This document shows, in pieces, positions 32,243 through 38,429 of a stretch of DNA of 64,000 nt. Below the pieces are notes generated by a model that was not told where the DNA came from, did not search any database, and saw nothing but the letters and a program-made list of their open reading frames with translations. Made by a program: the position numbers and the translations under genes. How positions within the stretch are numbered: position 1 is the first letter of the stretch; the number at the start of each line of letters is the position of its first letter. The DNA lies in the NCBI GenBank assembly GCA_964577695.1, contig CAZOAL010000003.1, forward strand, positions 163,486-227,485, in the 5' to 3' direction. This DNA is from an uncultured bacterium. GTDB lineage: Bacteria > Poribacteria > WGA-4E > PCPOR2b.

Positions 32243-33169
32243 ATGGCTAGGAAAAAAATCAGCGTCATCGGCGCTGGAAACGTTGGCGCGACTGCCGCAT
32301 TTCTTATCGCTCAAAAGCAAGTTGGCGATGTCGTGATGGTGGATATTATCGATGGGATTCCACAGGGGAAGAGTTTGGACATGGCACAAGCATCCCCTAT
32401 TGAGCTCTTTGACGCAAGCGTTACAGGCTCGCTGGATTATGAAGCGACTGCTGGCTCTGACCTCGTCATCATTACGTCTGGCTCTCCCCGCAAGCCGGGC
32501 ATGACCCGCGAAGACCTCTTGCAGACCAATGCGAAAATCGTTGGCATCGTCACGGAAAGCGTGGTGAAGCACTCGCCGAATTGTATCATCGTGATGTTGA
32601 CAAACCCGCTGGACATCATGACCTATCATGCGTGGAAGGTGTCGGGTTTCCCACCCAATCGCGTCCTTGGACAAGCTGGCGTCCTGGATTCAGCGCGGTT
32701 CCGTTATTTTATCGCTCTGGAACTTGGCGTCTCTGTCGAAGACGTTCAGGCACTTGTGATGGGGGGACACGGGGATACGATGGTGCCCCTGCCGCGTTAT
32801 ACAACGGTTGCCGGGGTTCCAATCACACAACTCATGTCCCCTGAGCGAATCACAGCGCTTGCCGAGCGGACACGCGACGGCGGCGCTGAAATCGTCAACC
32901 TGCTGAAAACCAGCGGTTACTACGCCGCCGGTGCCGCGCTCGCTCAAATGGCAGAAGCTATCATCCGAGACAAGAAGCGGATTATCCCTTGCTCGGCTTA
33001 CCTCACCGGACAGTACGGCATCAATGACCTGTACAGCGGCGTCCCGATTAAATTGGGGGCGGGCGGCGTTGAGCAGGTTATCGAAATCGAACTGACAGAC
33101 GATGAACTTCAGGCGTTGCAAACGTCGGCTCAGACGTATCGGGAAGGGATTCAACTGCTGGGGTATTGA
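32243..33169 (+). CDS. mdh: malate dehydrogenase (LDH-like MDH family)
   Basis: KISVIGAGNVGATAAFL Rossmann N-terminus; 308 aa; family conservation throughout. Confidence 0.85.
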   Translation: MARKKISVIGAGNVGATAAFLIAQKQVGDVVMVDIIDGIPQGKSLDMAQASPIELFDASVTGSLDYEATAGSDLVIITSGSPRKPGMTREDLLQTNAKIVGIVTESVVKHSPNCIIVMLTNPLDIMTYHAWKVSGFPPNRVLGQAGVLDSARFRYFIALELGVSVEDVQALVMGGHGDTMVPLPRYTTVAGVPITQLMSPERITALAERTRDGGAEIVNLLKTSGYYAAGAALAQMAEAIIRDKKRIIPCSAYLTGQYGINDLYSGVPIKLGAGGVEQVIEIELTDDELQALQTSAQTYREGIQLLGY

Positions 33170-33333
33170 TGCCGATTATAGTAAACGATCATGGGAATTA
33201 GTTCGTCTATTCAGAAGTTAGGCGCAATGCCAGTTATAGTGGAGGAGTTCTTTCTCTATCCTTACTAGCGAAGGTCAAGTGAGCAATATGATTTGGAACC
33301 GACAGACTAATCGGGAAGGTGAGTCGAGAATTC

Positions 33334-34107
33334 ATGGCAGAGCGAAAAAAGAAAGGGCGTCAGATCGTTGTTCACCTTTTGGCGTTTCTGGTACTCTTGT
33401 GTTTGTGGCAGTCGTTCGCATTGGCGTTCTTTCGGGGTTCAGAAATTTTCCCTGCCCCGTATGCTGTACTGAGAGCGTTGTTTGTGGAGATTCCTCCAAA
33501 AAGCCTTGTCAGTGATTGTGTGGCAAGCCTGAGTCGCGTGGGCGTTGGGTTGCTGGCAGCGATGATTCTGGGCATTGGGTTGGGCGTGCTCTTAGGGATG
33601 TTGCCGCGTGTGGGTCTGTATTTGACGACGCTTATCGAGTTCTTTCGTCCCATTCCGCCCATTGCTTGGATTCCGCTTGCTATCCTGTGGTTCGGCATTG
33701 GGGAGGTGTCGTCTTATTTCATCATATTCATGGCGGCGTTCTTTCCCATTTTCACGAACTCGTTTGCAGGAGCGCGTTCCCTCAGTCCCATCCACACAAC
33801 CGTCGCACGCAGTTTGAAGGTTCGCTGGACACTGTTCCTTCAGCACGTCCTGTTGCCGTCTGCGCTGCCGCAGATTGTGACAGGCGTGCGCGTCGGGTTA
33901 GGCATCGCTTGGATGGCAGTCATCGCATCTGAGATGGTGGCGGCTCAATCAGGCTTGGGTTACATGATTCAACTTAATCGCCTGCTGCTGTTAAGTGACC
34001 GTGTGGTCGCGGGGATGGTCATTATTGGTCTGGTTGGTTATGTAATGAACCAACTGGCACTACTGATTGGCGAGGTGCTAACGCCATGGACACGGCTCAA
34101 CAACTAA
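33334..34107 (+). CDS. ABC transporter permease, NitT/TauT (SsuC-like) family
   Basis: six TM segments; EAA-like loop; GTG 33319 is an alternative start. Confidence 0.75.
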   Translation: MAERKKKGRQIVVHLLAFLVLLCLWQSFALAFFRGSEIFPAPYAVLRALFVEIPPKSLVSDCVASLSRVGVGLLAAMILGIGLGVLLGMLPRVGLYLTTLIEFFRPIPPIAWIPLAILWFGIGEVSSYFIIFMAAFFPIFTNSFAGARSLSPIHTTVARSLKVRWTLFLQHVLLPSALPQIVTGVRVGLGIAWMAVIASEMVAAQSGLGYMIQLNRLLLLSDRVVAGMVIIGLVGYVMNQLALLIGEVLTPWTRLNN

Positions 34108-34925
34108 TCGGTCTTGGGGCACAGGCGGTTGACGCACGGATGGTGGTTTCGGAAGTGAGCAAGGTCTTCCAAAATGGAACTGCCGTGCTTCCCGTGCTGG
34201 AAAGTCTTTCGTTTACGGTGCAAGATGGCGAAGTGTTGGCAGTCGTCGGACCCAGCGGTTGTGGCAAGACAACGCTGCTTCACGTTCTCGGTGGACTACA
34301 ACCCCCCACCGCTGGAAGCATCGTCCTGGATGGAGAGCCATTGACAGAACCGTCTCGGAAAATTTCCTATGTGTTTCAGGAAGATAGCCTCTTCCCCTGG
34401 AAGACGGTGATGGGCAATATATTATTTGCGCTAGAGGCTCAAGACATCGGAAAGAAGGAAGCCGTGCCGCGAGCGCGAAAGTATATTGAGATGGTTGGGC
34501 TGACAGGGTTCGAGCACTACTATCCTGCTCAACTTTCCGGCGGGATGAAACAGCGTGTGGCTCTGGCGCGGGCACTTGCCACCGAACCCGAAATCTTGCT
34601 GATGGACGAACCGCTCGCAGCCCTTGATCCCGAGCGCCGTGAGAAGTTGCAGGAGGAGATCTCGGATATTCAGCATCACCTTGCTCGCACGATTGTCTTA
34701 GTCAGTCACGATGTTGACGAAATTGTATTTCTGGCAAACCGTGTCATTGTACTCTCGGGACGCCCTGCGACAATACGGGAGGAGGTTACTGTTAACCTTC
34801 CCTTCCCACGCACGGCAAGCGTCCGAGCCACCGATGAATTCATGCACATCAAAGCACATATTTGGAAGGTGCTGAGAGGCATCAATTCGACTGAGAATGG
34901 TTCACTAATGAAGGAGAATGAATAA
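34086..34925 (+). CDS. ABC transporter ATP-binding protein, NitT/TauT family
   Basis: Walker A GPSGCGKTT, LSGGMKQR, LLMDEP. Confidence 0.85.
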   Translation: MDTAQQLIGLGAQAVDARMVVSEVSKVFQNGTAVLPVLESLSFTVQDGEVLAVVGPSGCGKTTLLHVLGGLQPPTAGSIVLDGEPLTEPSRKISYVFQEDSLFPWKTVMGNILFALEAQDIGKKEAVPRARKYIEMVGLTGFEHYYPAQLSGGMKQRVALARALATEPEILLMDEPLAALDPERREKLQEEISDIQHHLARTIVLVSHDVDEIVFLANRVIVLSGRPATIREEVTVNLPFPRTASVRATDEFMHIKAHIWKVLRGINSTENGSLMKENE

Positions 34926-36626: not shown

Positions 36627-38040
36627 CCTCATATATCCTGCATCAACTTCTGGTAGCGAAAACTACTCCAGTGAGCCACCGCTGGGACCAATTGCGCTAT
36701 ATTCATCGCTGCCTGAAGAATGGCGTCGTCATGTGCGCTTTCTGGATAGCACCGTAATGACGCAGACGGAGATTGACGAGGGAGTCAACGAGCGCAAAGC
36801 AGATGTTGTTGCCATCAGTTGCACGATGTTCAATTACGCCAACGCAGTGCGTTTGGCAGAAGTTGCCAAACGGAATGGCTCGTGGGTGGTCTTGGGCGGC
36901 ATCCACATCACCTACCTGCGTGACGCGATTTTGGCGAAGATGCAGCAAGGCGAACGGGCAATTGATTTCTTGGTTACAGGCTACGGCGAACCCACCTTCT
37001 ACCCACTACTGCGGGCGTTGGCGATGGGCGGTTCGGTGACGGACATTCCCAACCTGAGTTACATAGAGAACGGACACATCGTCGTCAACCCGTCCGCCTA
37101 TAATCGACACGGTAGCGACCCGCTGGCTGAATCAATTGATTACCGCCCGATTGATTTTCGACGATACAGTGAGAAGTTCCAACGATACGGCAATCTAAGT
37201 TCCGTCAGTGTTGCCGCGTCCATGTTCACTCAACGTGGTTGCGCATACGCTGGCTCGCGCAAATGCACCTTCTGCTCTATTGAGCAAATCAACCCCCGCC
37301 GCCCGCCGAACCTAATTGAGCAGGACATTATAACGCTAATCACAGAGCACCACGCCGACCACATTCGTATCAGCGATGGTGACTTCACGGTGGACATCCG
37401 TCACATGAAGCGTGTCGCCGATGCCGCCGAACACGCCTTTGCCAAGACGGGACGTCGCCCCACCTTCTACTGCTTCGCCCGCGCCGATGAGATTGATGAG
37501 GCGCGAATTGAAGCACTCAAACGGCTGAACGTCGTCTCAGTGTTCATCGGATACGAGTCAGGCAGCGATGAAATGTTGCGGTCTATGCACAAATACACTA
37601 CTAAAGAGCAAAACTTACGTTCCACCGAGTTGCTGAAACAACATGGAATAGACGTAATTTGTGCGGGCATCGTTTTGGGCGCGGAGGGCGAGACAGAAGC
37701 GACGCTTCAGGAAACTCTTCAGTTCGTCCGTGAGTTGAAATCCATTGGCAACACCCATGCTTTAGTTGCTACACCTCTCATCCCCCTGCCAGGCTCGCCA
37801 TCCTTCACCCGCCTGTTGCAAGTGCTAGCAAAAGACGCTCCCGGCAAGTATCAAGAAGTCATCACCGCCGATGACTTCGACATTGAAGAACTCATAGAGA
37901 TCTGGAACAGGTACATGTGCAACGTACCCTTGTCCCGTCTGTTACGGGCTTCTGACGAAATCGCTACTCTATTCCGCATTGGTATTCGCTTTCTCAACTT
38001 CTCGCACGAGGGAAGCGTCACGCTGTCCAACAAAAAATAG
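36619..38040 (+). CDS. B12-binding domain radical SAM protein
   Basis: N-terminal cobalamin-binding-like domain (VVAISC...VVLGGIH); Cys cluster CAYAGSRKCTFCS with Cx8Cx2C spacing. Confidence 0.6.
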   Translation, partial: KIDLIYPASTSGSENYSSEPPLGPIALYSSLPEEWRRHVRFLDSTVMTQTEIDEGVNERKADVVAISCTMFNYANAVRLAEVAKRNGSWVVLGGIHITYLRDAILAKMQQGERAIDFLVTGYGEPTFYPLLRALAMGGSVTDIPNLSYIENGHIVVNPSAYNRHGSDPLAESIDYRPIDFRRYSEKFQRYGNLSSVSVAASMFTQRGCAYAGSRKCTFCSIEQINPRRPPNLIEQDIITLITEHHADHIRISDGDFTVDIRHMKRVADAAEHAFAKTGRRPTFYCFARADEIDEARIEALKRLNVVSVFIGYESGSDEMLRSMHKYTTKEQNLRSTELLKQHGIDVICAGIVLGAEGETEATLQETLQFVRELKSIGNTHALVATPLIPLPGSPSFTRLLQVLAKDAPGKYQEVITADDFDIEELIEIWNRYMCNVPLSRLLRASDEIATLFRIGIRFLNFSHEGSVTLSNKK

Positions 38041-38144
38041 CGCATTGGCTGCTGCACTATGCTCCACAGAAAACCTCACCTTTAGGTTGCGGCTTCGTCT
38101 AAGCCCTGACTTGTCAACAGTGTCCGGGAATGAGGGGCAGAGGG

Positions 38145-38429
38145 ACTGAAATCGTCAACCTGCTGAAAACCAGCGGTTACTACGCTGCCGGTGCCGCGCT
38201 CGCCCAAATGGCAGAAGCCATCATCCGCGACAAGAAACGGATTATCCCTTGTTCGGCTTATCTCACCGGACAGTACGGCATCAACGACCTGTACAGTGGC
38301 GTCCCGATTAAATTGGGGGCGGGCGGCGTTGAGCAGGTTATCGAAATCGAACTGACAGACGATGAACTTCAGGCGTTGCAAACGTCGGCTCAGACGTATC
38401 GGGAAGGGATTCAACTGCTGGGGTATTGA
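38145..38429 (+). pseudogene. duplicated 3' fragment of mdh (last ~95 codons), about 97% nt identity to 32886..33169
   Basis: direct alignment; the differences are mostly synonymous; the upstream junction at about 38145 has no mdh homology. Confidence 0.9.

Follow-up and report, generated by a model that had tools for sequence, protein, structure and literature searches.

The mdh gene of an uncultured bacterium (GTDB lineage Bacteria; Poribacteria; WGA-4E; PCPOR2b) is followed by a cassette of five co-oriented genes that is bracketed by two copies of the gene's own 3′ end, and this arrangement is very probably the footprint of a single-crossover integration at the mdh 3′ end. The DNA is a stretch of 64,000 nt, called the window here, from contig CAZOAL010000003.1 of assembly GCA_964577695.1 (positions 163,486 to 227,485 of the forward strand). 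The genes between the two copies encode a NitT/TauT-type ABC importer, a membrane protein and a B12-radical SAM enzyme, and all features of mdh, the cassette and its right flank lie on the plus strand. An integration or single-crossover footprint with this gene content had been proposed from the sequence of the window (the original prediction); Pfam and NCBIfam matches agree with the gene content, and both the anatomy of the repeat and the corresponding sites of relatives support the footprint.

A repeat search identified the direct repeat at 32886-33169 and 38146-38429 as by far the longest non-tandem repeat of the window. Each copy is 284 nt long and the offset between them is 5260 nt. The left, attL-like copy is the 284-nt end of mdh, TGA stop codon included, whereas the right, attR-like copy is a displaced mdh 3′ fragment. 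Pairwise alignment showed 275 identical positions out of 284 (96.8%), with homology that sets in abruptly at CTGAAATCG and goes exactly as far as the stop codon; the sequences on the outer sides of the two copies are unrelated. The mismatches, at positions 32926, 32944, 32959, 32968, 32977, 32992, 33001, 33025 and 33037 of the left copy, are confined to the first 152 nt of the repeat and the final 132 nt are identical. All nine fall at third codon positions and are synonymous, eight of them being transitions, and the 94 residues encoded by both copies are the same. The identity of about 97% and the mostly synonymous changes of the original prediction are thereby reproduced, and the second description can be sharpened to exclusively synonymous.

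The probability of finding nine out of nine synonymous differences under unconstrained (neutral) decay is low (P ~3e-6 to 4e-5), which indicates that the copies diverged as parts of working mdh alleles and not by decay after a duplication in place. Among the nine variable sites, some states of each copy recur in the close relatives L081-L083 described below, as population alleles would. Since variants common to these relatives occur in both copies, the imported arm would have come from the same species-level population. A crossover point between 32926 and 32944 would assign to one allele five of the six private variants, a weak hint that the exchange occurred there.

The gene on the left is intact. 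It encodes a protein of 308 amino acids (32243-33169) with Pfam domains Ldh_1_N and Ldh_1_C, which scores 477 bits with NCBIfam TIGR01763 against an equivalog cut-off of 351.85. Its amino acid identity to mdh of Candidatus Poribacteria metagenome-assembled genomes (MAGs) is 81-86%, and its 90% protein cluster includes a protein named by NCBI as Poribacteria malate dehydrogenase. No 5′ mdh sequence is present upstream of the right copy, and a tblastn search with mdh matched there only residues 211-308 (38133-38426). A second full-length mdh paralog, the alternative raised for the position at 38.1 kb in the original prediction, was found neither in the window nor in any relative examined. An open reading frame (ORF) of 99 codons at 38130-38429 was considered as a functional mini-protein and rejected, as it has no proper ribosome-binding site and the remnants in other genomes are frameshifted or truncated. 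Upstream, the gene order citrate-synthase-like gene, icd, mdh is conserved across Poribacteria; the genes downstream of mdh are not conserved. The citrate-synthase-like protein of 525 amino acids (29224-30801), encoded directly upstream of icd and mdh across the phylum, gave a weak partial citrate-synthase match (Pfam, 48 bits) and matched no NCBIfam family; a divergent enzyme of the citrate or citryl-CoA synthase type is one possibility.

The close relatives are three short contigs (L081, L082 and L083) on which mdh is about 95% identical to that of the window at the nucleotide level. The ABC/radical SAM cassette is absent from all three. On L082, mdh is followed by a DUF4258 gene with an 83-aa partner, the last 87 nt of mdh, and sequence that is 93% identical to window 38430-38665. 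In this order another cassette occupies the insertion point, with a shorter mdh-tail repeat as its boundary and the right flank of the window after it. Downstream of mdh, L081 carries the DUF4258 pair, a HicBA-like pair, a DUF559 gene (96.6% identical to window 39174-40162) and COXG, while L083 ends shortly after mdh with the start of the same DUF4258 cassette. The right flank of the window was also found on metagenome contig L098, where at least 102 nt of mdh tail precede the same putative-antitoxin flank, a truncated PIN gene and a HicBA-like pair. L098 is one short contig returned by a clade-specific mdh-tail pattern in a metagenome scan; it begins 102 nt before the stop codon and is not callable as an empty site.

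In the more distant P0008 lineage (mdh 85% identical, genomes of about 7 Mb) the DUF559 gene lies 60 nt after mdh, and we read this arrangement as the empty site at a deeper level. The empty site anticipated by the original prediction was thus recovered in part: close relatives lack the cassette and the P0008 lineage has mdh directly before DUF559, but the site in L082 holds another cassette. The simplest history that these gene orders suggest starts from an ancestral array of mdh, the putative antitoxin/PIN pair, HicBA and DUF559, on which insertions at the mdh tail and deletions, each a separate event, would then have acted. The integration in the window had been suggested to be possibly old or decayed. 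It looks recent instead, because the genes are intact, the copies are 97% identical with synonymous differences only, and the cassette is missing from relatives with about 95% identity.

Remnants of the mdh tail also occur elsewhere in Poribacteria. In sponge-associated L006 and L010, mdh is followed by a PIN-like gene of 162 codons, a gene for 75-78 amino acids and an mdh-tail remnant of about 70 nt; in sponge-associated L003 it is followed by a WD40 gene, a remnant of about 50 nt, a gene for 78 amino acids and a second remnant. The remnants in the window, L082, L006 and L010 and the two in L003 all end exactly at the mdh 3′ end or last codon. All six share at least the last 48 nt of mdh and differ in their left ends (52-284 nt), with repeat lengths of about 52, 72, 96 and 284 nt. 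Tandem accretion was seen in L003, with its two remnants, and in L006. In the latter a 146-nt repeat (11576-11720 and 12319-12464) that flanks a HicBA pair consists of the 3′ half of the 78-aa gene and the start of the mdh remnant, which suggests that one cassette is present in tandem copies or that the array has undergone homologous exchange.

As a control, each locus was searched with the C-terminal 110 residues of its own mdh after masking of that gene. None of 68 mdh loci from other phyla contained a C-terminal mdh remnant, and two weak matches aligned elsewhere in the protein. Among Poribacteria species representatives with downstream sequence, 3 of 11 carried a remnant, in addition to the lineage of the window; there was none in the P0008 lineage or in the pelagic Poribacteria lineage. 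The rest of the window and about 30 related loci showed no comparable partial gene duplication. Together the comparisons indicate that in Poribacteria the mdh tail is a hot spot where insertions recur, bordering a flexible islet of toxin-antitoxin and cargo genes, and not the place of a one-off event as the original prediction implied. Judged from the arrangements, at least four or five independent events would have occurred in the phylum.

We propose that a circle of about 5.0 kb integrated, its contents being the five cassette genes (for the ABC importer, membrane protein and B12-radical SAM enzyme) together with 284 nt copied from the 3′ end of mdh. One reciprocal crossover between this circle and the chromosomal mdh tail would leave, on the left, an intact hybrid mdh (32243-33169) with a tail that is partly native and partly element-borne. 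On the right it would leave the cassette and then the displaced tail (38146-38429), still joined to its original flank of the putative antitoxin/PIN pair and DUF559. For the enzyme we tentatively favor, with the matter close to evenly balanced, a site-specific recombinase that recognizes a core within the last ~50 nt of mdh and that was supplied in trans or has since been lost by internal deletion. The cassette would then be an integrase-less islet resembling a cis-mobilizable element (CIME); both the circle and the enzyme are what we infer from the products. All repeats end at the stop codon, which is the pattern expected when an element must restore the gene that it cuts. These ends, the common terminal segment and cassettes that are almost without spacer DNA argue for site-specific recombination, as does the use of the same gene in lineages whose mdh differs by about 20% in nucleotides. 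Loss of an integrase gene is plausible because deletions are clearly frequent in this array.

Several observations weigh against such an enzyme or against the integrated order itself. A Pfam search of the ORFs of at least 120 amino acids in the window (about 60) revealed no integrase, recombinase or transposase, in line with the original prediction, which had noted the missing integrase, and no integrase-type gene is present among the annotated genes around mdh in L081-L108. A cognate integrase-bearing element at the mdh site was found neither among these annotated genes nor in viral contigs, a limited sampling in which the downstream genes of L001-L012 were partly scanned. The viral contigs also yielded no free element, attP or mdh-like fragment, and a conserved inverted-repeat core is not visible across lineages. 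The widely varying repeat lengths do not obviously stem from one recombinase family, and 284 nt is long for an att repeat. The second L006 repeat extends into the neighboring 78-aa gene, which is a better fit to homologous exchange. Finally, the integrated order rests on one MAG contig of 260 kb that crosses a 132-nt exact repeat.

RecA-dependent homologous recombination would give the same topology, either by a Campbell-type single crossover or by unequal exchange between the arrays of different strains, and we regard it as a possible but doubtful alternative. Here a circularized or repeat-flanked fragment from the same species, with part of mdh and the cassette, would have recombined with the mdh tail of the recipient, and no dedicated recombinase would ever have been involved. 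The imported mdh arm suits such an exchange: it matches the host copy at 97% identity, the differences are all synonymous and of the population type, and a perfect block of 132 nt is available. Homologous exchange also agrees with the range of repeat lengths, the lack of a recombinase gene in the window and among the annotated genes of related loci, the non-mdh sequence in the second L006 repeat, and the plain deletions that have altered the array in sister strains. It leaves unexplained, however, that unrelated cassettes were joined to the mdh tail at least 4-5 separate times and that every repeat ends exactly at the stop codon without downstream DNA. A donor arrangement, with the cassette natively beside mdh and no remnant, was not found, and the lack of comparable partial duplications of other genes at the loci surveyed also argues against homologous exchange. 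Recombination by RecA accounts well for the spread of the structure once it exists, but not easily for the repeated fusion of mdh tail and cassette at the stop codon.

A broader version of these two mechanisms, which we consider unlikely, would make the stop-codon end of mdh a standing capture site in Poribacteria. Integrase-free circles with mimics of the mdh tail would be inserted there by a recombinase encoded elsewhere or by RecA alone. The toxin-antitoxin pairs, the WD40 gene and the ABC/radical SAM module would each represent such a circle, and together they would form integron-like arrays in which the remnants serve as attC-type separators.

The order of the assembled sequence was compared with an independent assembly. 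Logan contig L084 (SRR6155503, 5036 nt) is 100% identical to window 33140-38175 and thus confirms both inner junctions, that of the mdh tail with the cassette and that of the cassette with the start of the fragment. It ends 30 nt inside each repeat copy, as expected of a k=31 graph at a repeat, and before the first single-nucleotide polymorphism (SNP). It is compatible with both the integrated order and a circle, and shows no circle. Across the 132-nt exact block, assembly with short k-mers does not resolve whether the order is integrated or consists of an empty site and a 5.26-kb circle. An artefact in which an empty-site chromosome and a separate circle of that size (cassette and one mdh tail), or two strains, were joined through this block is nevertheless improbable. 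It would agree with the identical final 132 nt and with the end points of L084, and the exact mdh product of the window is without a record in the searched contig collection, so that no second mdh contig was retrieved. The 260-kb contig, in contrast, passes through both repeat copies with distinct SNP sets, and analogous integrated structures lie on single unbroken contigs in L082, L003, L006 and L010. Even with such an artefact, an element with an attP derived from the mdh tail would still be real.

Rearrangement in place, by a local tandem duplication that included the mdh tail, gene gain and loss between the copies and neutral divergence, is very improbable. Short heptamer and palindromic repeats are common in the intergenic DNA of this genome and could promote slippage or unequal exchange. 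A decaying copy, however, would hardly show nine of nine synonymous changes, nothing besides the mdh tail is duplicated, the site is occupied in a sister strain by another cassette with another repeat length, and the cassette genes are without counterpart near mdh in any relative. Least credible of all is a decayed second mdh paralog or an integron-like cassette array with folded attC-type sites, since, even if toxin-antitoxin cassettes in arrays recall chromosomal integrons, no 5′ mdh sequence precedes 38146, relatives have no paralog, the fragment is 97% identical to the resident gene, relatives carry remnants of other lengths or none, single-stranded DNA folds of six junctions (z −1.2 to +0.5) gave no attC-like hairpin, and no IntI-type integrase is encoded by the window ORFs.

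Other known targets and vehicles were considered and set aside. The window contains no tRNA or tmRNA gene that could be the true target, and no known structured RNA was matched at the Rfam gathering threshold. An integrative mobile element exploiting Xer (IMEX) at a dif site was rejected: GC skew follows gene orientation without a terminus-type switch near mdh, and no dif-like motif was seen in the mdh tail by eye. A link to phages or proviruses was rejected as well, since a degenerate DNA pattern of the mdh tail, the mdh protein and the radical SAM protein were without match in viral contigs.

Integrative elements that target the 3′ end of a gene and restore it on insertion are well known, among them tRNA-targeting islands and ICESt1/ICESt3 at fda of Streptococcus thermophilus. 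The mdh cassette resembles them in its direct repeats, of which the left belongs to an intact target and the right is a displaced 3′ fragment, in homology that runs to the gene end, in its absence from close relatives, and in repeated use of the site with tandem accretion. It differs in carrying no integrase, excisionase or transfer genes in cis and only 5 kb of cargo, and in a repeat of 284 nt where a few tens of nt are usual. CIMEs, cis-mobilizable att-flanked islets without recombination and transfer modules of their own, are known from the S. thermophilus fda locus. They share with the mdh cassette the cargo between att-type direct repeats of a target 3′ end, the missing integrase and the arrays with other elements at the site. 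For the mdh site, unlike for CIMEs, no cognate integrase-bearing element is known, and mobilization in trans is conjecture. Most known cases of insertion-duplication (Campbell-type) integration are those of laboratory suicide vectors and plasmid co-integrates. There, too, one crossover produces the order gene, insert, gene fragment, with a repeat that equals the carried fragment and can have any length, but the recurrent stop-codon boundary is not explained by it alone. Chromosomal integron arrays likewise string together small cassettes, often of the toxin-antitoxin kind, with a recurring sequence between them; at mdh, however, the separators are mdh-tail remnants without an attC-like fold, and there is no IntI or attI.

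The tycheposons of Prochlorococcus encode tyrosine recombinases and replication modules and use tRNA or tmRNA genes as targets; in their islands newer integrations push older ones outward, and partial target copies and degenerate remnants are scattered (bioRxiv 10.1101/2020.12.28.424599). The mdh islet is similar in its nutrient-uptake cargo, the successive integrations at one site and the partial target copies left behind, but shows neither a recombinase, nor a replication module, nor a tRNA or tmRNA target. A full-text literature search yielded no report of mdh as an integration site, and none of the listed Poribacteria papers addresses this site in its title or abstract. The architecture of the cassette is familiar; it stands out by mdh as a target for which no report was found, and by the lack of an integrase among the window ORFs of at least 120 amino acids.

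The cassette itself begins with a spacer (33170-33318) that has no similarity to what follows the right copy; no plus-strand terminator-like site is predicted in it. The first gene encodes an ABC permease of the NitT/TauT type (33319-34107; Pfam BPD_transp_1, NCBIfam TauC/SaoP/NtrB-like below cut-offs); in the gene calls on contig L084 it starts at the equivalent of window 33334. It is followed by genes for the ABC ATPase (34086-34925; Pfam ABC_tran, 1e-36) and for a periplasmic substrate-binding protein that is NMT1/SsuA-like (34918-35949; Pfam NMT1, NMT1_2 and OpuAC; NCBIfam SsuA_fam with 137 bits, below its cut-off of 163.5). A permease, an ATPase and an SsuA/NMT1-type binding protein encoded together make up a NitT/TauT-family importer set, with all matches below equivalog cut-offs. 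The next gene encodes a membrane protein of 226 amino acids (35946-36626) that matched no Pfam or NCBIfam family; homologous modules have a membrane or unknown protein at the same position. The last product is a B12-binding radical SAM enzyme of 475 amino acids as called (36613-38040; Pfam B12-binding and Radical_SAM), in an ORF that opens at 36577. No NCBIfam family reached its cut-off with this enzyme, and its family is rare, with 60 homologues at E<=1e-20. The right spacer (38041-38145) would contain the closure junction of the proposed circular intermediate. The base composition of the cassette equals that of its surroundings, and promoter and terminator scans gave signals no higher than shuffled background. 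The cassette is probably nutrient-uptake cargo that would be expressed via read-through from mdh.

Homologous modules of ABC importer, membrane protein and radical SAM enzyme (66-73% amino acid identity) are present on other metagenome contigs, away from mdh. A copy of the cassette with its own mdh-like 3′ end, as the original prediction had suggested might exist, was not found: the modules on L085-L087 and L109 have neither an mdh fragment nor a flanking long direct repeat. On L109 (1-11508) and L086 (2000-5500) homologues of the B12-radical SAM enzyme (66-69% amino acid identity) lie beside phage- or plasmid-like genes. One of the homologous modules adjoins genes for a PDDEXK nuclease, an ATP-dependent DNA ligase, DUF3150, DUF1257 and DUF2997, and another is near DUF5681 and DndB-like genes. 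With such contexts, some of them phage- or plasmid-like, the module behaves like transferable cargo, which hints that it travels on mobile DNA.

The conserved right flank (38430-39165) starts with a heptamer repeat (38433-38462), directly after the displaced mdh tail, and continues with genes for a putative antitoxin of 85 amino acids (38507-38764) and a PIN_3 toxin (38752-39165). Comparison with L081 and the P0008 lineage showed that the following segment (39174-40165) consists of the last ~60 nt of a HicA-like gene (39174-39237), which is otherwise deleted, and the DUF559 gene. Between DUF559 and the COXG region lies a further segment of about 4.3 kb (40163-44467) with a 130-aa ORF, a TPR gene of 743 codons and a 146-aa ORF; it is absent from L081, has a GC content above that of its surroundings, and counts as the islet's second strain-specific insertion. 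Before COXG, about 240 nt are locally duplicated in tandem (44392-44629 and 44635-44863, 77% identical) inside or upstream of a 178-aa ORF, and L081 matches both copies. Elsewhere in the window, a defense islet (12074-16145) encodes a BrnA-type antitoxin, a Type ISP restriction-modification enzyme of 1033 amino acids (Type_ISP_C, 3e-101) and a YoeB-like toxin, and further toxin genes are present, such as MazF/PemK at 56055-56423.

Short tandem arrays with a 7-nt unit, in many different sequences, are abundant in the intergenic DNA of the window. Apart from the array after the displaced mdh tail they were found at 814-983, 4585-4662, 8151-8192, 14991-15023, 27849-27881, 30813-30901, 32165-32230, 50896-50961 and 62617-62675. 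Some form inverted pairs that could fold into long hairpins, for example TAATGCG/ATTACGC between icd and mdh and AACGTGA/TTTCACG around 814-983, and by eye the arrays recall the cyanobacterial short tandemly repeated repetitive (STRR) sequences. Contig L086 has heptamer arrays too (3857-3903 and 12942-13079). A palindromic element of about 70-80 nt (GTAGCCCAAG...CTTGGGCTAC) occurs in intergenic regions on both strands, with copies at 20425-20513, 40677-40757, 42965-43086, 46115-46183 and 60701-60769, two of which stand on both sides of the GC-rich (~0.6) TPR gene (40745-42976). Another copy on L083 (435-540) lies between icd and mdh, where the window has the heptamer hairpin. Two intergenic segments 12 kb apart (9752-9901 and 21840-21989) form a 150-nt direct repeat with 90% identity and no Rfam match. 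Purine-rich arrays are present as (AAGG)n at 842-946 and as (ATGGAAGG)n, with about 32 copies, at 7882-8139; each is followed by a TTTCACG heptamer array, and the second overlaps a 124-aa ORF.

The mdh locus shows the gain and loss of small accessory modules beside one housekeeping gene in an uncultivated and largely symbiotic phylum. The modules concerned are a rare B12-radical SAM and importer module and several toxin-antitoxin pairs, with no recombinase gene found nearby. Should RecA alone be enough, or a recombinase act in trans, the mdh site would offer a simple natural setting in which to study the origin and spread of integrase-less islets. The mdh tail would also serve as a practical marker for flexible islets in Poribacteria metagenomes.

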